From: Candidatus Calditenuaceae archaeon
GTDB lineage: Archaea; Thermoproteota; Nitrososphaeria_A; Caldarchaeales; Calditenuaceae
NCBI GenBank assembly: GCA_025058055.1
Contig: JANXEU010000002.1
Span: 23,851-47,850 of the forward strand
Length of the DNA: 24,000 bases
Reading direction: 5' to 3'
Positions 3,487 through 10,313 of the stretch are shown here, piece after piece (position 1 is the first letter of the stretch; the number at the start of each line of letters is the position of its first letter). The position numbers and the translations under genes are program-made. The notes under the pieces were generated by a model, which was given only the letters and a program-made list of their open reading frames with translations, had not been told where the DNA came from and did no database searches.

Positions 3487-3738
3487 CCTTGACTTCGTGA
3501 AACGGCCAGCCCTCGTTTACGGCCCCTTTCATCAAACCTTCGAACACAAGTCCGATTGTTGCTCACTGTCTGGCCGTGTTATCACCCTATCACGCTCAGC
3601 CTCTCATCCAACGCGCTGACCTTCGTCTCTTTCAGGAATTAAGGCTAATAGGACGGCATGGGCTCGTTGTGACGAGAACGAACAGCGGGGGTAGCCAAGC
3701 CTGGTCAAAGGCGCAGGGTTGAGGGCCCTGTCCCGTAG

Positions 3739-3759
3739 GCCGAGTTGAAAAGGGCGGTC
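3739..3759 (+). other. Non-canonical tRNA intron (variable arm) with BHB-like motif
   Basis: Removal gives the variable arm UCCCGUAGGGGUUC and an 85-nt tRNA. A 4-bp helix C3733-U3736:G3754-G3757 is flanked by 3-nt bulges AGG (3737-3739) and UCG (3758-3760). Cutting after the 2nd nt of each bulge gives this 21-nt intron. Boundaries are ambiguous by 1 nt (G run). Confidence 0.55.
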
Positions 3760-3761
3760 GG

Positions 3762-3790
3762 GTTCGTGGGTTCGAATCCCACCCCCCGCA
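3762..3790 (+). repeat. Left copy of 29-bp direct repeat (putative attL core, tRNA-Leu 3' end)
   Basis: GTTCGTGGGTTCGAATCCCACCCCCCGCA is identical to 8141-8169. Flanking bases differ on both sides. Confidence 0.9.
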
Positions 3791-4051
3791 ATTGAAGAGA
3801 AGATGCTGTTTATTCGGTCATGTCGATTGGGCGGTGAATTTAAGGCGTGTTTCAGTGGAAATGGCTTTTGAGTGTCTCCTCGCTGCGAAGCGGCAGACGG
3901 ATTCCTAATGGGGTGAAGGATTTTTGATGCGATAAGGTGCTTTCGTTGTTGGAGGCGGTAAAGTCGTCTAGGTTGGAAGTTTAGCTGAGAAGCTAAAGGG
4001 GCTATTCATGGATGTTAAAATGTTATTTTGAAGACACCGTCTACGTCTAAC

Positions 4052-4165
4052 ATGACCAAGCGTGTAGTCATAGTAATAGTAGCCATCATAATTTCAATAG
4101 TTTTATCATCGTTGTACATCACACTTAATCCTACATGTGTCACTAGGACCGAGTACCTAATTTAG
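4052..4165 (+). CDS. Hypothetical 37-aa single-pass membrane peptide
   Basis: The ATG ORF reads MTKRVVIVIVAIIISIVLSSLYITLNPTCVTRTEYLI, with a hydrophobic core after a KR N-terminus. It is below the ORF-track size cutoff and there is no further support. Confidence 0.2.
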   Translation: MTKRVVIVIVAIIISIVLSSLYITLNPTCVTRTEYLI

Positions 4166-4176
4166 AGACATGTCGT

Positions 4177-4374
4177 TTGAGAACTGCTCTTTACGGCGTC
4201 TGTGTGATCACGTTCCATGTTCAGGGACTATCTATGGATTGGCAAGACCGTGTGGACTTGGATAAGCATAGGGAATTTGAAACCATCCTTAACAGTCTGG
4301 CGGAGGCGGGCGAGTTTGAGTTTATGACTATGAGTTCATACTACATGCGCCGGCCAGCAGCAGCCAATCCGTGA
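4177..4374 (+). CDS. Hypothetical small protein (ATG at 4234 more likely, 46 aa)
   Basis: ORF-track entry. The acidic segment DWQDRVDLDKHREFETILNSLAEAGEFEF resembles no family I recognise. Confidence 0.2.
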   Translation: MRTALYGVCVITFHVQGLSMDWQDRVDLDKHREFETILNSLAEAGEFEFMTMSSYYMRRPAAANP

Positions 4375-4425
4375 AAAGCGAGAGCTGGATAGGTTTAACA
4401 TCGGGTCGTAGGCTGATTGTTTAGG

Positions 4426-4974
4426 ATGTTGTCGGGTAAGCAGAGAGAATGGCTGCTTAAGCTTTTGAAGCATCGGAGCCGTTTAACATGTGTTGAATGG
4501 GCGGAGGTCGAGTCTGTTTTGAAGGAGAATTACGAGAAGCTGTCTTCTCTGTATGAGATGGAGAGGACGGGGGGCGAGCCTGCATTAGTTGCTTACGATG
4601 AGGGGGCTGGGCAGCTTGTTTTCATGGATTGTTCGCCCGAGAGCCCGGCTGGTCGTAGAGGGCTGTGCTACGACCGTGAGGCGATGGCTCTCCGCATCAA
4701 GAAAGGTGTGCATCCGAAGGGGAACGTTGTGGACATGGCGGCTGAGATGGGGGTTGAGGTTTTGACGGAGGAACAGTACAGATGGCTGCAGACCGTCGGC
4801 GAGTTTGACACACGCACGTCCAGCTGGCTGAATACACCCGACAATGTTAGAAAACATGGCGGCGCCATATTCGCTGAACGACGGTACAACACGGTTTTCG
4901 TATGTGCAAACAGTGCTCAATCTTTTTACAGCAGCCGAGGATTCCGAGCGGTTCTCAAAGTACCAATAAGCTAA
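4426..4974 (+). CDS. DUF4256-like protein
   Basis: The ORF track starts at TTG 4417; ATG at 4426 is more likely. Segments EMERTGGEP, CSPESPAGRRGLCYDREA, VDMAAEMGVEVLTEEQYRWLQ..GEFDT.TSSWL.TP...R.HGGA.F..RRY..VFV..N.A.S.Y..RGFR match my recollection of the mostly bacterial DUF4256 family. Needs an HMM check. Confidence 0.7.
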   Translation: MLSGKQREWLLKLLKHRSRLTCVEWAEVESVLKENYEKLSSLYEMERTGGEPALVAYDEGAGQLVFMDCSPESPAGRRGLCYDREAMALRIKKGVHPKGNVVDMAAEMGVEVLTEEQYRWLQTVGEFDTRTSSWLNTPDNVRKHGGAIFAERRYNTVFVCANSAQSFYSSRGFRAVLKVPIS

Positions 4975-5020: not shown

Positions 5021-5408
5021 TTAGAACCGCATGCAGGCCTTCACCGTTAGCCGCGCCTTGTTTAAAATCTCCGTGGCCCGATCTCTGCCAAAGGCCCTGC
5101 TGGCAGATATCCGCTCTCTTTCATAGCCGTAAAACGTTGGCCCACGAATACTTGCGGGTTCTGTCAGAAGCTTCCGCATCTCCATCAGCATTTCTCTCAA
5201 ATAGTCGGGCAGCATCAACCACCACCAGAACGTCTATGTCGCTTTCAGGCCCCGCCCTACTCGTGGCGACAGAGCCGAACACGCAGACAGACCTCAGCCT
5301 CTCGCCAAAACGTGTCTGCAGCAGCTGGAAGTGGTCGTCAACTAACTCAAGATACTCCCGTTGAATTTTCTCCAAGTAAACGGGCTCGCTCAGTGCCGAG
5401 TTGAACAA
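5021..5408 (-). pseudogene. Minimal nucleotidyltransferase (MNT / pol-beta superfamily), apparently frameshifted
   Basis: ORF 5121-5408 carries the GS-x10-DxD motif (FGSVATSRAGPESDIDVLVVVD, nt 5232-5276). Just after VVVD, around 5210-5218 in a GGTGGTGGTT run, the plausible continuation LPDYLREMLMEMRKLL... shifts into the overlapping ORF 5021-5218. A single joined product would be about 128 aa. Confidence 0.55.
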
Positions 5409-5426
5409 AATATGCTAACACGGCTA

Positions 5427-7061
5427 TTAATCACTTCTGTTCAGAATTTCTCTAAGTTTTCTTTTAACGTAGGCTGGGCTTGTTTCAGCGTATTCAGCGA
5501 TTTTAACCGGGTCTGTTTCACCCTTTTCCAGTAGATATTCGATGGCTTTGTCCACAGCTGTTTTACGCACGAGGTTTACGATTTTTCGAGGCGTTCTAAT
5601 TGCGTAGTTTTTCTCGAGCATGTCTAAGTTGTCGAGGATGGTGAATGATTTTTCCGCTTGAATTTCTTTCGGCAGGTTATGAATTTCCTCTATTATTTTC
5701 TTCCAGTCGACTCCGTGCCTTCGGATTGTTTCGGCTGCATCGCCTATGTCTCTTTCCCTTGACGTCAAAAGTTTTAGAAAAACAACGTCGTTGAGGTCTA
5801 GGAGCATCAGCTTAAGTTTACCGAGAGCGATCCCGAAAGTAGCTCGGTCCAGAATTTTTTGTGAAACCTTCACTCTCGCCACCTCTTCCGTGAAAACGTC
5901 TACCCTCATTAAAGTCGGGTGTATGAAGATGTTGCTCGGGTTTGCTCTAAGGTCTCCCTGCGTCCATTCTGCTGTTTTTCGAAACCCTGCAGCTGTTAGT
6001 GCCTTCTCAACTGTTTGGTAGTCTTCTCTGCTCCTGACCAAGATGTCTATGTCTTTCGTCGACGGCTTTATGCCCCTGATGACCATATTTATTCCACCTA
6101 AAAGGTAAACGGTGGTTTCACGTTCAACCTCTCTAGCCCATTTTTCTATGTTGGACATTATTTCGTCTGAGGGGAGTGATGGATGGGCCTTGATTCCGTA
6201 CTGTGAGCAGAGGTCTCTGAACTCGTTCCATGGAAGGAAAATGTCGGGGTTCGCTACTGGAAGACCTTCTACGTAGCTCTCTAAATCAAGCAGAACGCTA
6301 ATCACAGGTGTTTTCTTTGCTATCTTTCTTGCTCTTAGCAGGTCTATGTTTGTTCTGTTGGCCATGTAGAACACGGCGCACATGGTTCTTTCCTGCTTAG
6401 TCCTCGATGAGAGAAGTGCGTGGACCAATACTTCTTCACGGCCTATTCTGTCAGCGGGGTAAGCATAGTAGTCTCGGTCTGTGATGTACAGGACTCCGTA
6501 ATCTTTGAAACGGGAAAAAGCCGTCAACTCGCCTTTCGCAAGCATGCCTCGTGGAACTGATTTGATGATGAAACCATTCGAAAAGAGGACAACTGCTTCT
6601 GGTTCGACGGCTTCCTGCCATTTTATCATCCTGAGTAAAGTAATTAAAAGACGGATGGTTTCGTCTTCAACTACATGATATCGATGGTTGATTTTCTTCA
6701 CGACACCTACTTCCATGAGACCGATGAGTGTTTTCCATACTGTTCTTCTGGACAACTCTGTGTTTTGGATTAGTTCTTCAAGATTTTTTGGTGTGAAAAG
6801 AGCGTATAGAACGTCAGGTGCGGCTCCCTTCAGAATCTTCGTCACGTCATACTGCTGTGCTACTTGTTGGAGCACTTTACCAACCGGGTTCCCACTAATC
6901 ATGTATAAGTTGCCCGCTTTTTCCGCAAGACCCATTTTCATCAGTGATTTTACGACCAAGTAAGCGTGTGGTTTGCTTATACCAAGCCTTAACCCTAGCT
7001 GATCCACGGTCATCGGGCCCCCTAACAAAACCTTGACCGCTCTAGCTTCTGTGCTATTCAT
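5427..7061 (-). CDS. Multi-domain wHTH / nucleotidyltransferase-fold fusion protein (AbiE-like architecture, uncharacterised)
   Basis: 544 aa. Residues ~1-60 and ~85-135 are winged-helix-like (PMTVDQLGLRLGISKPHAYLVVKSLMKMGL; LEELIQNTELSRRTVWKTLIGLMEVGVV). Residues ~150-300 form a domain of unknown type. Residues ~315-445 form an NTase fold with LLGGINMVIRGIKPSTKDIDILV (nt 6039-6098), a later RVDVF acidic residue and LLTSRERDIGD. Residues ~490-544 form a terminal helical/HTH-like tail. Low GC. It ends 18 nt upstream of the MNT gene start. Confidence 0.8.
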   Translation of the reverse strand: MNSTEARAVKVLLGGPMTVDQLGLRLGISKPHAYLVVKSLMKMGLAEKAGNLYMISGNPVGKVLQQVAQQYDVTKILKGAAPDVLYALFTPKNLEELIQNTELSRRTVWKTLIGLMEVGVVKKINHRYHVVEDETIRLLITLLRMIKWQEAVEPEAVVLFSNGFIIKSVPRGMLAKGELTAFSRFKDYGVLYITDRDYYAYPADRIGREEVLVHALLSSRTKQERTMCAVFYMANRTNIDLLRARKIAKKTPVISVLLDLESYVEGLPVANPDIFLPWNEFRDLCSQYGIKAHPSLPSDEIMSNIEKWAREVERETTVYLLGGINMVIRGIKPSTKDIDILVRSREDYQTVEKALTAAGFRKTAEWTQGDLRANPSNIFIHPTLMRVDVFTEEVARVKVSQKILDRATFGIALGKLKLMLLDLNDVVFLKLLTSRERDIGDAAETIRRHGVDWKKIIEEIHNLPKEIQAEKSFTILDNLDMLEKNYAIRTPRKIVNLVRKTAVDKAIEYLLEKGETDPVKIAEYAETSPAYVKRKLREILNRSD

Positions 7062-7087
7062 CAGTCTAGTTTACTTAGATAATATGA

Positions 7088-7098
7088 CTTTATATAGT
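7088..7098 (-). promoter_or_regulatory. TATA box of the 544-aa gene
   Basis: The minus strand reads TATATAAAG about 27-37 nt upstream of the ATG at 7061. Confidence 0.4.
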
Positions 7099-7232
7099 TG
7101 TCTTATGTAAGTAAATTTTTTGGCACCGCTTCGGCTGCTAAGCTTGATAAAAGGCTGGCGCATATTTAGTCAAGGTTGAGGTTTTTAAGCCGGGTAGGAA
7201 AGCTTTGAAGCTTTACTTAGTTTATCTGTTGG

Positions 7233-7448
7233 TTGTTTTTGGCTCCGCTTGTCGTTTTTGGTTCCGTGGTTTCATGGGTTGTCTACGTTAATGCGCCGGA
7301 ACTTCTGCTGGTACTGTTGGCTGTCATTTTCGCTACTCTAACTGCTGTGGCGTTGCTCTACGTTTACTGGACCTTTAACTACGTCAAGTCGCTTGTATAC
7401 GAGCTGAACGATGAGGATGTTGTCATGCATGGTGTTCGTCGTCGATGA
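7233..7448 (+). pseudogene. Truncated two-TM membrane protein (possible bPH_2/DUF304-type N-terminus)
   Basis: 71 aa from a TTG start. Two hydrophobic helices are followed by YVKSLVYELNDEDVVMHGV, which resembles the beginning of a membrane-flanked bacterial PH domain. The ORF then stops abruptly. The family call is weak. Confidence 0.3.
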
Positions 7449-7503: not shown

Positions 7504-8061
7504 CTAGCAGTCGACGTAGGAGGCCGACTCGTTCGTGAACCTCTCGTCATGTGCGTCGACGATGATGCCGAAGGATGTGGAGCGGTCAGCTAGTAAGAAA
7601 GAGGTTTTGCCATCGGGTGTGATTGCGACGGCCCCTCTCCAAGCCTTGTCCATCAAAGCAACTTTGGCGCCTATTTTGACGGTTGCCCGTATCGCGTCTC
7701 CTGCGTTGCTTGGTGCGCCTACCGTCCATTCCTTACTGGAAGAGTTTGGCAAATGTTTTTCACACATCTCTAGGCTGTATTCGAAACCGCCGCTGGCCAG
7801 CAGAACACCTTCACGGGCCAGAACCCTGACAGGCGTTCCTTGACTGAGGACGACAGCCCTTACCACACGGCCCTTTTCCGTGACCAGCTGCCTAAGAGGC
7901 GACTCAAGCCAAACCTCGACACCCTTCTTCAGACAAGGATAAAGAAGCTGGCCTTTGAGCGAGCCTCCCATGGTCAACGGTACACGGCCTGTCAAGCCGT
8001 AGACGATGAGCTGCGCGCCGAGGCGTAGGAAAGCATTCATGCCTGTGGAGCTTCTGGCGAG
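7504..8061 (-). pseudogene. Internal fragment of an FAD-dependent dehydrogenase (3-ketosteroid dehydrogenase / fumarate reductase flavoprotein-like)
   Basis: Part of ORF 7504-8328. The segment VEVWLESPLRQLVTEKGRVVRAVV...VLLASGGFEYSLEMCEKHLP...EWTVGAPSNAGDAIRATVKIGA.VALMDKAW...IIVDAHDERFTNESASYVD matches the middle of KstD-like flavoproteins. It lacks the N-terminal GxGxxG FAD-binding region and the C-terminal third. Confidence 0.6.
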
Positions 8062-8070
8062 AAACTTTTT

Positions 8071-8169
8071 CCAAGCCTTGTTGGAGGCTGTGGAGGCGGC
8101 AGGCTTAAGATCCATAAGTGGGAGACCTGCTCCCGAAGGAGTTCGTGGGTTCGAATCCCACCCCCCGCA
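8071..8169 (+). pseudogene. tRNA-Leu(UAA)-like remnant lacking the 5' acceptor strand, with canonical-position intron
   Basis: D-arm-like CCAAGCCTTGTTGGAGGC (8071-8088) is followed by a 9-nt near-duplication. Anticodon stem is GCAGG (8099-8103)/CCTGC (8126-8130) with loop CTTAAG|A, anticodon TAA at 8106-8108. A 15-nt insert lies at 8110-8124 (position 37/38). Variable arm is TCCCGAAGGAGTTC (8131-8144). T arm and 3' acceptor are identical to tRNA-Leu(GAG). No GCGGGGG 5' strand is present (GAAACTTTTT instead). Confidence 0.5.
8141..8169 (+). repeat. Right copy of 29-bp direct repeat (putative attR core)
   Basis: Identical to 3762-3790. Confidence 0.9.
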
Positions 8170-8436
8170 CACCGACAGACGTTCTCGCAATTTTTCGGGA
8201 TCGGTGAGGAAGAACAGTGGTATGACGTTGAAGCTGCGGTGACTGCACCAAGGATTTGACGCGTTCCGTGCCCTTGAGGGCGCTTTCGGAAAGTAGTCAG
8301 TCTTACAGATCCCTGCTCTCATTTGCAAGCTTCTACCCTCTCTCCGAGAGGTTGGAGCGGACTCTTTAGGGGCGTTCGATCTCCCCGAACGTCAGAGTTA
8401 CACATTTACGGAACCGGATGGCTATGGTCATCAGAG

Positions 8437-9105
8437 ATGCTTGACTGCTTACTGCTAGACCTCGACGGGACCGTCGTTGAGTTCCCGCGCGAGTGGATCT
8501 ACAAGGCGAAAGAGGAGAGCATCAGGAGGCTCTCCGAACGCGGGCTCAGAATACCCGAGGAGATAGATTTGACCAGACCGCTCTCGGTCATACTTGAAGA
8601 AGTTCGTCGACTGAACGGTCCGTCGATAGAAGGAGAGGTGATGAGGATCATCGATGCGACCTTCAAGCGCTACGAGTGCGCGGCCGCGGAGCGCGCTGTC
8701 CCGAGGAAGTGGGTAAAGGAGGAGCTGAGCAAGTTGAACGGATCGCTCAAGGTAGCCATCGCGACCAACAATTCAAGAGATGCGGCCGTCAGAACTCTTG
8801 AGATCGCAGGGATATCGAACATGGTCAAGTGCGTCGTTTCTAGAGACGACGTGAACAGCATGAAACCCGACCCCCACATGCTTCTGAGGGCCATAAGACT
8901 CTGCAGCTCCACGATAAACGCCTCGCTGTACGTTGGGGACTCGATAGTCGACGTCTTAGCGGCCAGATCCATCGGAATACCGGTGATCCTAGTGCTCGGA
9001 GGGATAGCGAAGCCCGAGGACCTGAAGACCGTGAGACCTCACTTCGTTGCAGACGACTTCAGGGAAGTCTCCAGGCTGATCTCCGTACTAATGAACGGGC
9101 GGTGA
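8437..9105 (+). CDS. HAD-superfamily hydrolase (phosphoglycolate phosphatase-like subfamily IA)
   Basis: ATG at 8437 gives MLDCLLLDLDGTVVEF (motif I DxDGT). Also present are VAIATNNSR (motif II), K..PDP (motif III) and YVGDSIVDV (motif IV). The ORF-track start at 8323 adds a non-homologous extension. Confidence 0.8.
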   Translation: MLDCLLLDLDGTVVEFPREWIYKAKEESIRRLSERGLRIPEEIDLTRPLSVILEEVRRLNGPSIEGEVMRIIDATFKRYECAAAERAVPRKWVKEELSKLNGSLKVAIATNNSRDAAVRTLEIAGISNMVKCVVSRDDVNSMKPDPHMLLRAIRLCSSTINASLYVGDSIVDVLAARSIGIPVILVLGGIAKPEDLKTVRPHFVADDFREVSRLISVLMNGR

Positions 9106-9261
9106 CCGTTTAAGCACCTGTCTGTGCAAGACCTCGCCGACTTAATGCTGCTCCTCTCCAATCCCCTTGACACCTACATGCATGGTGGTGACGCATCAGG
9201 CGTTGGAAGTTTGAAGCCGCTTAGCGGCATGTCCATGACCGGTAGCTGGGACTTGTTGAGG

Positions 9262-9276
9262 TTTTATTCATAATAA
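9262..9276 (+). promoter_or_regulatory. TATA-like box upstream of the FAD oxidoreductase gene
   Basis: TTTTATTCATAATAA is centred about 32 nt upstream of the ATG at 9300. Confidence 0.3.
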
Positions 9277-9299
9277 CCACCGTTGCGTGATCGGAAACG

Positions 9300-10313
9300 A
9301 TGATGGTGACCGTCGCCGGAGGGGGAATCGCAGGGAGCTACCTCGCCAACCTCCTCTCCGGAGACCACGATGTCCACGTGTTGGAGAGGCAGAGGCCTGA
9401 CGGCTTCAGGGCGGTTTGCGCGTGGGGCACTAGCTATCACGAGATGAGGCGGTTGCTCGAGGTGGTAGACGTGGAGTTCGACGATTACGTCCTTCACGTG
9501 GGTAAGAAGATGATCATAGACCTCGGCCAAGACACAGTCGATGTTCCTCTGATGGGGCTCTGCACTTTCGATAAGAGGAAGTTGATTCTGGACCTGCACA
9601 GACGCATCAAGGTGTTCTACGGAGTAGAGGTGAAGAGGTCCGAGGACCTGAGGGGAGATCTTGTGATCGATGCGACTGGTTTCCACAGGGTACTGCTCCC
9701 GAGGCTTGCGAGGGACTACTATATTCCGACGCTCGAGTACCTAGTGAAGTACAGAGAACCACCGATCGATGACTTCTACGTGAAGCCAATAAAGCCCCTG
9801 TCCGGATACTTCTGGTACTTCCCTCTGGGAAACGGGTTGGCACACGTTGGCGCGGGCGACTTCTATAAACGTCACATGCAGGTACTCGACGAGTTCGTCT
9901 CGAGACACGGCGGCGAGGTCCTTAGCAGAATCGGTAGACCGGTGAGGATAACACCGCCTCACATGACCAAACCATTCAACGACGGATCCGTCTTTGGTGT
10001 TGGTGAGAGCATCGGCGCTGTGTACCCTGTGTTAGGGGAAGGGATCATCCCGGGCATGCAGTCCGCGGAGATCTTCTACAGGCTACTGAGCAGTTCAAGG
10101 CTTCACGATTACGAAAGGGAACTTATGGACTTCTTCAGGCCCTACTATTTGGCGTTTCAGTTCATCAGGAAGAAGATCCGGAGAGAGTACAGAACGATAC
10201 CCGACGCTAAACTACTCTTAGACGTCTTCATTCACATGAAGCGAAACGAGCAAAGGTACGGCATGAAGATCAGGTTGAGAGACTGGCTGAAGGTCGTCAG
10301 GACTTACGGTTGA
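9300..10313 (+). CDS. NAD(P)/FAD-dependent oxidoreductase, geranylgeranyl-reductase-like
   Basis: 337 aa. The N-terminal dinucleotide fold is VTVAGGGIAGSYLANLL...VHVLER, with VIDATG downstream. Size and layout resemble the GGR/FixC family. Specific substrate is unknown. Confidence 0.65.
   Translation: MMVTVAGGGIAGSYLANLLSGDHDVHVLERQRPDGFRAVCAWGTSYHEMRRLLEVVDVEFDDYVLHVGKKMIIDLGQDTVDVPLMGLCTFDKRKLILDLHRRIKVFYGVEVKRSEDLRGDLVIDATGFHRVLLPRLARDYYIPTLEYLVKYREPPIDDFYVKPIKPLSGYFWYFPLGNGLAHVGAGDFYKRHMQVLDEFVSRHGGEVLSRIGRPVRITPPHMTKPFNDGSVFGVGESIGAVYPVLGEGIIPGMQSAEIFYRLLSSSRLHDYERELMDFFRPYYLAFQFIRKKIRREYRTIPDAKLLLDVFIHMKRNEQRYGMKIRLRDWLKVVRTYG

Follow-up and report, generated by a model that had tools for sequence, protein, structure and literature searches.

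The 24,000-nt stretch of a Candidatus Calditenuaceae archaeon that was analysed here (contig JANXEU010000002.1, positions 23,851 to 47,850 of the forward strand; hereafter the window) carries on its minus strand, at 5427-7061, an open reading frame (ORF) for a protein of 544 amino acids (aa) with the order winged helix-turn-helix (wHTH), wHTH, HVO_2833_C (PF24271), DUF6036 nucleotidyltransferase (NTase) and a further wHTH. As its collinearity with two-gene relatives shows, this protein joins in one chain a conserved archaeal bicistronic module, namely, a double-wHTH/HVO_2833_C regulator and a DUF6036 NTase with a C-terminal wHTH. By analogy we propose, with a probability of about 55%, that the protein is an autoregulated fusion which acts in the manner of an AbiE/MenAT toxin-antitoxin or abortive-infection unit. 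The locus had seemed unassignable in a first-pass annotation made from the letters of the DNA because a second NTase stood next to the gene in place of a HEPN partner, and this we find to be a deletion artefact. The interest of the locus now lies in an uncharacterised archaeal regulator-NTase module that occurs split and fused and has a partner domain without a detectable structural relative.

Purifying selection acts on the 544-aa ORF, which is an intact gene. Its product is 100% identical to a protein (P0001) from a metagenome-assembled genome (MAG) labelled 'Thaumarchaeota archaeon' and has six close homologues, the nearest of which are Caldarchaeum MAG proteins, the host being an archaeon of the Aigarchaeota / Ca. 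Caldarchaeum type; when the search for close homologues was repeated with a 62-sequence alignment the same seven proteins only were returned. Against the closest relative, that in locus L004 (window 5427-7061 compared with L004 5092-6618), the ratio of nonsynonymous to synonymous substitution (dN/dS) is 0.23 overall and 0.12-0.24 in every domain. The AlphaFold2 model made with the 62-sequence alignment is confident over the full length (pLDDT 94.3, pTM 0.85). Each domain that the first-pass annotation had proposed for this ORF is backed by Pfam, and the C-terminal tail by its likeness to HTHs. The two N-terminal winged-helix domains (aa 2-57 and 84-131) and their helical linker, delimited by Pfam and by the secondary structure of the model, occupy 6669-7058; the first matches TrmB at aa 2-49 (E 1e-11), the second was found by Pfam at aa 84-130, and HVO_A0261_N, Sta1 and Lrs14 also matched in the N-terminal part. 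The middle domain HVO_2833_C (aa ~150-295, 6177-6614) was placed by family matches to PF24271 and by a separate AlphaFold2 model, and the MenT1-like minimal NTase domain (aa 296-462, 5676-6176) by DUF6036, by profile and Foldseek matches and by residue conservation. In the C-terminal helical region (aa 463-544, 5430-5675) the model has helices over 465-542 with the third wHTH at the end; the tail resembles Lrp/AsnC-type HTHs (E 0.008), and standalone homologues show HTH_5 and TrmB matches at the same C-terminal position.

The NTase assignment is solid because a conserved active-site pattern is found together with profile and Foldseek matches to MenT1. The motifs lie where the first-pass annotation had put them: GG-x11-TKDIDILV at nt 6039-6098 (residues 322-341), RVDVF with D388, and LLTSRERDIGD at 431-441. 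Conservation was assessed over 62 full-length homologues and 32 excised NTase domains, fused and standalone, and the residues that are invariant or at least 90% conserved are G322, G323, K332, T335, K336, D337, D339, D388, F390, K430, R435, D438, and D441. LLGG-x13-DID and RVD388VF are invariant in the NTase alignments, and in the segment FLK430LLTSR435ER437D438IGD441 the residues K430, D438, and D441 are invariant and R435 is at least 90% conserved. Motif III of AbiEii (a Lys in a hydrophobic context, then an Arg) and motif IV (+DxxD) are thus both present in this segment, at a spacing shorter than that of AbiEii. In AbiEii itself motifs I-IV, '+DxxD' included, are all needed for toxicity (PMC3985639). 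The domain also has the minimal Pol-beta-superfamily NTase fold, taken here as hG[GS]-x9-13-DhD and a third acidic residue on a neighbouring strand in an alpha-beta-alpha-beta-alpha-beta core; the order in the model is helix, strand, GG, helix, strand (DxD), helix.

The family searches agree with this. DUF6036 (PF19502) matches aa 317-462, at 23.6 bits, which equals the gathering score, with the whole protein and at 27.5 bits with the excised domain. Among the 32 family NTase domains DUF6036 was found in 30 (best E 3e-10), DUF2204 in seven and AbiEii in one. A search of the whole PDB with the NTase-domain profile (hmmsearch) returned one distinct sequence, M. tuberculosis MenT1 (8an4_A, 'AbiEii/AbiGii toxin family'; E 8e-5 over 131 positions), with GG, T-[KR]-D-x-D and K...R..D..D paired in the alignment. 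The best Foldseek matches of the full-length model were the putative NTase TM1012 and MenT1, with TM-scores of 0.56-0.62 on the target (0.58-0.62 for TM1012, structures 4hx0 and 2ewr; 0.56 for MenT1); the NTase matches came at probability 1.00, and all the rest were wHTH proteins. In MenT1, D41xD43 bind Mg2+ and K137 binds the NTP, D152 is among the active-site residues with described roles, and auto-phosphorylation of T39 neutralises the toxin, the same role being that of S78 in MenT3 (PMC11375011). T335 of the window protein, two residues ahead of the first catalytic Asp, corresponds to this auto-phosphorylation position. By profile and alignment, then, the domain is homologous to the AbiEii-family toxin MenT1 with every catalytic residue kept. 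Homology to a solved MenT and the T/S-x-D-x-D, Lys and Asp residues are all found, and the nearest characterised relatives of the NTase are toxins, though the domain lies outside PF08843.

The HVO_2833_C match in the window protein spans aa 178-290 and scores 23-26 bits, below the 34-bit gathering score. PF24271 was found in 32 of 39 homologous middle domains (best E 7e-15), and the collinear regulator of the haloarchaeon H. turkmenica matches HVO_2833_C with 157 bits (E 3e-46). By these family matches the homology of the middle domain to HVO_2833_C is real, and the window member is a divergent one. Its conserved residues are T180, F182, S183, E209, H214, E280, and Y288. A separate AlphaFold2 model of aa 146-300 (pLDDT 95) has three strands, then a short helix and then a bundle of five helices; with this model Foldseek found nothing in the PDB (best E 0.13, probability 0.12) and nothing in BFVD, and a middle-domain profile search of PDB sequences found none. 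In AbiEi (COG5340) an N-terminal wHTH is followed by the AbiEi C-terminal antitoxicity domain. Here the wHTHs are present and the next domain is HVO_2833_C, with no AbiEi match in Pfam or PADLOC.

The two-gene form came out of the survey of homologues. An exhaustive hidden Markov model search with residues 141-544 gave 1145 cluster representatives at E<1e-3, of which 149 reached E<1e-30. The top 150 representatives are mostly fused proteins of 510-730 aa, in which the core begins at about residue 140-170, and about 40 of them are standalone proteins of 220-280 aa that match the NTase and the C-terminal wHTH only. Loci with homologues come from Caldarchaeum, HR01, Hadarchaeota, Methanobacteriota, Iainarchaeota and Nitrosopumilaceae, and tblastn against plasmids gave 94 records, all of them haloarchaeal. 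In most of the plasmid matches listed, the query was covered by two adjacent genes that carry the RefSeq names 'MarR/ArsR/winged-helix regulator' and 'DUF6036 family nucleotidyltransferase'; fused forms are found on two haloarchaeal plasmids as well. All four split loci inspected (L020, L022, L023, and L024) have a regulator gene of ~307-308 aa and then an NTase gene of ~267 aa, with an overlap of 1-4 nt. The H. turkmenica regulator aligns with residues 18-290 of the window protein, and its NTase, which ends in a wHTH, with residues 293-491. The two-gene form is collinear with the 544-aa protein and is split at residue ~292, and since this split falls at a domain boundary the 544-aa protein is a fusion of the two-gene module. 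A regulator gene directly upstream of an NTase gene, which is the operon layout of AbiE and MenAT, is thus found in the split relatives, and the window has the fused variant. The first-pass annotation had taken the protein for a single-chain regulator plus NTase in an AbiE-like arrangement, which was reasonable, and the collinear two-gene versions and the homology to MenT1 ground it further. The module is patchy across archaea, with gain and loss. Three chromosomal loci have a mobile-element feature close by, L003 a terminase, L013 a tyrosine integrase and L023 an IS66 element.

Several single members of the family are worth recording. In L013 the homologue is interrupted within the NTase domain (5521-7173 and 7894-9420; ORFs of 322 aa and 193 aa) and adjoins a 508-aa tyrosine recombinase (Phage_integrase, E 7e-19). 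In L014 (77-1289, minus strand), from a Ca. Iainarchaeum MAG, an overlapping pair lies directly upstream of a fused homologue and encodes a 203-aa wHTH protein and a 228-aa NTase with GG-x13-SKDLDIIV. That this pair is a minimal copy of the module was considered and found unsupported: the NTase gave a weak active-site match to the DUF6036 profile in hhalign (E 6e-4, 47 columns), the regulator gave nothing, and there was no Pfam match. L005 (CAZQJI010000112.1), a 3.2-kb contig binned as 'uncultured Bacteroidota bacterium', has a homologue whose match coordinates and identity are the same as those of the archaeal L002, and it is probably mis-binned. The 637-aa protein P0109 combines a predicted Na+/H+ exchanger (aa 14-373) with a DUF6036 NTase (aa 417-556) and could be a true fusion or an artefact of gene calling. 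P0016, P0018, P0033 and similar proteins of 650-730 aa have ~100-150 additional C-terminal residues, and in the extension of P0016 a weak HTH match to Fe_dep_repress (aa 640-662, E 0.008) stays below the gathering score.

A probable promoter and operator lies at 7070-7115, where inverted-repeat arms of 13 nt, TTTACTTACATAA and TTATCTAAGTAAA, stand on either side of a TATA-like box, the repeat stopping 8 nt short of the ATG. The score of this inverted repeat was reached by one of 300 shuffles. Repeats flanking a TATA box were also found upstream of the homologues in L003, L008, L009, L010, L011, and L014 and of the split operon L020, each reached by no more than eight of 300 shuffles; the sequences of the arms are unrelated between lineages. 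This suggests autorepression by the wHTH domains through the TATA-flanking repeat, as in AbiEi. The wHTH segment is itself set apart from the remaining gene: in codons 1-145 dS against L004 is 2.0 and dN is 0.40, while dS in the remainder is 0.24-0.65, and the mosaic is consistent with a fast-evolving specificity module. The promoter inverted repeat, like the wHTH segment, differs between the window and L004. These comparisons suggest that recombination exchanged the DNA-binding module and its operator as a unit.

In the toxin-antitoxin or abortive-infection unit that we propose, the N-terminal wHTH pair would bind the inverted repeat that brackets the TATA box and so repress transcription of its own gene, and HVO_2833_C would hold the NTase inactive in cis, either by occluding it or by favouring the phosphorylation of T335. 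Release of the NTase would follow a trigger, for example infection by a virus or loss of the element. The released NTase might then add nucleotides to an RNA target, most plausibly the 3' ends of tRNA as MenT does, and this would lead to growth arrest; the C-terminal wHTH may recruit the nucleic-acid substrate. A number of points weigh against this proposal. A toxin and antitoxin that are permanently fused cannot make use of a differential stability of the parts, and therefore a different activation logic is needed. The middle domain has no likeness to the AbiEi or MenA antitoxins or to solved or viral structures, and because no such relative was detected its 'antitoxin' role is pure analogy. 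The NTase is not a member of AbiEii/DUF1814 (PF08843; COG2253/COG4849), which matched one of the 32 domains, at E 1.3e-3, and gave no match with the window protein. The nearest Caldarchaeum homologues, those in L001, L004, L006, and L015, lack the inverted repeat upstream. No PADLOC model, AbiE included, matches the core, few defence genes are visible near the gene, and neither a scan of viral contigs nor tblastn against phages found a homologue. The plasmid location, finally, is weak evidence of mobility because haloarchaeal 'plasmids' are often large secondary replicons.

The main rival explanation is that the protein is an ordinary transcription factor in which the NTase-like domain is a nucleotide sensor or a self-modifier that tunes the DNA binding of the three wHTHs, with no toxin activity and no role in mobile-element conflict. 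In favour of this, the protein has three wHTH domains and its own promoter carries an operator-like repeat, many archaeal regulators, for example those of the TrmB family, consist of a wHTH and a ligand domain, RefSeq names relatives of the protein MarR/ArsR regulators, and no known defence model matches the core. However, the full catalytic set (GG, DxD, third Asp, Lys, Arg, DxxD) is invariant across 32 divergent domains, which argues for catalysis over binding, and the closest characterised relative is a toxin. In addition, the overlapping regulator-then-NTase layout of the split form is typical of toxin-antitoxin operons, and the distribution is patchy, with gain, loss and deletion stubs. 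We hold the ordinary regulator to be a serious possibility but, on balance, an unlikely one.

The proposal of a toxin-antitoxin or abortive-infection unit can be carried further, and here we are more tentative still. HVO_2833_C and DUF6036 might together define an unrecognised, archaea-centred toxin-antitoxin or antiviral family, whose fused form would be a self-contained sensor-effector in which HVO_2833_C silences a MenT-like tRNA NTase in cis until a viral or stress cue arrives; we rate this wider claim as rather doubtful. If it is true, the protein would be an archaeal analogue of the CapRel-type fused immunity proteins with a built-in transcriptional autoregulation. The repertoires of toxin-antitoxin and defence systems in archaea are poorly charted, and this module, which is named by DUF labels only, is compact and occurs widely, with 1145 cluster representatives, 94 records of haloarchaeal plasmids and members in at least six lineages of archaea. 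A full-text literature search found no paper that mentions DUF6036 or HVO_2833, and a search for DUF2204 gave nothing relevant. The split and fused forms offer a natural experiment on control in cis as against control in trans of an AbiE/MenAT-like toxin.

Another explanation is that the protein is a maintenance or replication factor of a mobile element, which binds an origin or a partition site and whose NTase acts on DNA ends or in priming. The module is frequently plasmid-borne, the fused gene of Halalkaliarchaeum adjoins orc1/cdc6 and a type B DNA polymerase, the protein has multiple DNA-binding domains, and there are weak PHROG matches of the wHTH to replication-initiator families. These PHROG matches, however, are limited to the wHTH, most chromosomal copies, that of the window included, lie away from replication genes, the NTase is of the minimal MenT/TM1012 type without primase or polymerase features, and the gene is single and self-contained. 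We consider this explanation improbable.

On the same strand, 18 nt past the stop codon of the 544-aa gene, is an ORF (5121-5408) in which the first-pass annotation had recognised a second NTase, of the minimal MNT type, by GS-x10-DxD at nt 5232-5276 and had seen the reading frame break right after VVVD. The NTase (NTP_transf_2, E 7e-9) and the position of the break both stand, but the break is the junction of a 553-bp deletion and not a frameshift. A simple frameshift in the MNT gene was examined and rejected, for a search with the repaired protein found a 173-aa homologue that matches the first half of the query only and the second frame turned out to be HEPN. The MNT remnant (5211-5408, minus strand) holds codons 1-61 of a 173-aa protein, with 75% identity to residues 1-61 of P0157, and its native ATG is CTG in the window by alignment to L016. 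The remnant of the HEPN partner (5021-5212, minus strand) holds the last 63 codons and the stop codon and is out of frame with the MNT remnant; its frame at 5024-5212 has 79% identity to residues 68-130 of the 133-aa HEPN protein of L016, which matches PF05168 with an E of 1e-20. The junction lies at 5198-5214. By blastn, window 5198-5385 matches L016 8198-8009 (87%) and window 4392-5213 matches L016 9553-8734 (85%), the two segments overlapping by 16 nt, and in a global alignment with L016 there is a single gap of 553 nt, right after GGTGGTGGTTGATG. The bases lost correspond to L016 8182-8734, and there is a short microhomology, CTGCC.GAC. The deletion joined MNT codons 1-65 to HEPN codons 68-130, leaving ~35% of MNT without its ATG and 47% of HEPN out of frame, so that all that can still be recognised in the window of a complete MNT and a complete HEPN is MNT residues 1-61 and HEPN residues 68-130. 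In the intact relatives, which are four Caldarchaeum loci (L016-L019), the 173-aa MNT protein (P0157), an interval of 12 nt and the 133-aa HEPN protein are followed by a convergent DUF4256 gene; in PADLOC P0157 matches PDC-S09 (E 2.5e-13) and PDC-M05A (E 1.7e-7). By these alignments the neighbour is what a deletion has left of a separate MNT-HEPN pair, a dead fusion MNT'-'HEPN. Neither an architecture of two NTases without a HEPN nor the inactivation of one partner by a frameshift is borne out, because the MNT had a HEPN partner of its own, the C-terminal half of which is still in the window, and the deletion destroyed the one gene as well as the other. In the public MAG this deletion remnant is annotated as a 95-aa 'nucleotidyltransferase domain-containing protein'. 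For annotation in general, where the frame seems to shift between two short toxin-antitoxin genes, the cause can be a deletion by which toxin and antitoxin gene became fused.

The related loci show how the two units came to lie side by side. L016-L019 have the intact MNT-HEPN pair without the 544-aa gene, and of that gene L016 and L017 keep only the promoter, the first codons, and the last codons with the stop; the promoter and first codons are 84% identical to L004 over 105 nt and the ATG is mutated. Insertion of a 1.73-kb cassette relative to L016 was rejected as an explanation since the retention of the promoter and of the first and last codons in L016 and L017 means a deletion there. Because this stub stands beside MNT-HEPN the adjacency is ancestral, and by this comparison the order in the ancestor of the sub-lineage was bPH_2, large gene, MNT, HEPN, DUF4256, one lineage having lost the large gene and the lineage of the window MNT-HEPN. 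L004, which has the gene, and L017, which has the stub only, belong to one MAG, a sign that the presence of the gene is polymorphic. L001, L007, and L015 carry a homologue of 53-57% identity elsewhere in the same tRNA-Leu-adjacent region and in the reverse orientation, directly followed by DUF4256 and without MNT-HEPN. A survey of the neighbourhoods, which the first-pass annotation had proposed as a check, found no MNT homologue directly downstream in the 15 other loci that encode the 544-aa gene, and two weak MNT-like tblastn matches 1-3.5 kb away; the haloarchaeal plasmid loci inspected have no MNT directly downstream of the module either. Since each unit survives without the other, their adjacency is incidental. 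The 544-aa gene and the MNT remnant have no functional link, and the two-NTase architecture is an accident of decay.

That the 544-aa protein and the downstream MNT are nevertheless one 'regulator-NTase plus second NTase' unit, one partner of which was recently inactivated, as the first-pass annotation had it, is very hard to maintain. The two are on the same strand and 18 nt apart, and the stub in L016 places the large gene and MNT-HEPN 34 nt apart in the ancestor of the sub-lineage, where co-transcription is possible. But the MNT has a canonical HEPN partner of its own, the large gene occurs without an intact MNT-HEPN in the window, in L001, L002, L003, and L015 and on haloarchaeal plasmids, with the converse in L016-L019, and the window holds fragments of MNT and HEPN only (~35% and 47%). 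Nor is there much to be said for the 544-aa ORF being a decaying pseudogene in a dying islet, for although all the other islet genes except DUF4256 are truncated its frame is uninterrupted, its conserved residues are all present, its dN/dS is 0.23 overall and at most 0.24 per domain and its model is confident over the full length, and we regard this too as extremely unlikely.

The gene lies in a region of low GC content, as the first-pass annotation had noted, with 44-49% against 55-62% in the flanks, and the region is a decaying variable islet at a tRNA hotspot. On its left is an intact tRNA-Leu(GAG) gene (3685-3790, plus strand; ARAGORN and Rfam), the last 29 nt of which (3762-3790) are repeated at 8141-8169. 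The right edge is a 3' fragment of a tRNA-Leu(UAA) gene (8083-8169, plus strand), with 88% identity to the tRNA-Leu(UAA) genes of L001 and L015. Of the features of a tRNA island, the perfect 29-nt repeat and the drop in GC are thus present, the right repeat being in a fragment of the other isoacceptor, and the repeat alone is no proof of integration because both tRNA-Leu isoacceptors share the acceptor and T arms. No integrase ORF was found in the window in the ORF list or with Pfam. Upstream of the 544-aa gene lie an N-terminal remnant of a bPH_2 membrane protein (7233-7448, plus strand; aa ~23-85 of 173, 81% identity to the bPH_2 protein of L016) and an internal fragment of an FAD-binding oxidoreductase (7504-8084, minus strand; aa ~165-384 of 554, FAD_binding_2 E 1e-19, with a 554-aa homologue in L016). 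A deletion of ~857 bp relative to L016 and L004, with its breakpoint at 7437, removed the C-termini of these convergent bPH_2 and FAD genes. At a further breakpoint, 8084, FAD codon ~165 is joined abruptly to the tRNA-Leu(UAA) fragment, and collinearity with L004 ends there.

The DUF4256 gene (4417-4974, plus strand; PF14066, E 5e-70), which is convergent with the MNT and HEPN remnants, is the only other intact gene of the islet and a constant neighbour in all the Caldarchaeum loci seen (L001, L007, L015, L016, and L017). Directly after the tRNA-Leu gene is a low-GC stretch of ~600 bp (3791-4391) that has no counterpart in the related loci; its sole ORF (4177-4374, plus strand, 65 aa) has no family match. 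The tRNA-Leu(UAA) genes at L001 3277-3398 and L015 5709-5836 have an insertion of ~26 nt past the D-arm region, which is probably a non-canonical intron; the genes were called by neither ARAGORN nor Rfam and were recognised only by alignment with the tRNA-Leu of the window.

Compared with known systems, the module is like AbiE in that a wHTH regulator stands directly upstream of a Pol-beta-superfamily NTase, the genes overlapping in the split form, in that the NTase has hGG, DxD, the Lys/Arg motif and '+DxxD', and in its promoter inverted repeats and its occurrence on plasmids and variable islands. It differs from AbiE in that the NTase is DUF6036 and not DUF1814/PF08843, and the motifs are tighter, with GG-x13-DxD and eight residues from K430 to D438. 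The regulator consists of two wHTHs and HVO_2833_C, for which no relation to the C-terminal domain of AbiEi could be detected; the NTase has one more wHTH, at its C-terminus, and both halves are one polypeptide in the window. The residues correspond to those of MenT1, T335-K-D337-x-D339 to T39-R-D41-x-D43, K430 to K137, and D438 and D441 to the D149/D152 region, at a sequence identity of about 15%. The N-terminal half of the window protein resembles neither MenA1, a helical peptide of 7 kDa, nor the AbiEi-like MenA3, and the MenT toxins are separate proteins without a wHTH. TM1012, the best Foldseek match, is a DUF6036-type NTase, but it is a standalone bacterial protein of ~160 aa with no known function and no described partner. 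The likeness to the MNT-HEPN systems (MntA/HepT, type VII; PADLOC PDC-M05 and PDC-S09) belongs to the remnant, whose intact relatives are adjacent proteins of 173 aa (NTP_transf_2) and 133 aa (PF05168). CapRel reportedly has a toxin and its neutralising domain in one polypeptide, with relatives made up of two genes, and is said to be a precedent for autoinhibition in cis that is released by a viral trigger. The CapRel toxin has an unrelated fold, that of a RelA/SpoT-like pyrophosphokinase, and CapRel is bacterial and without DNA-binding domains; that the archaeal 544-aa protein might be released by a trigger in the manner of CapRel is speculation by analogy.

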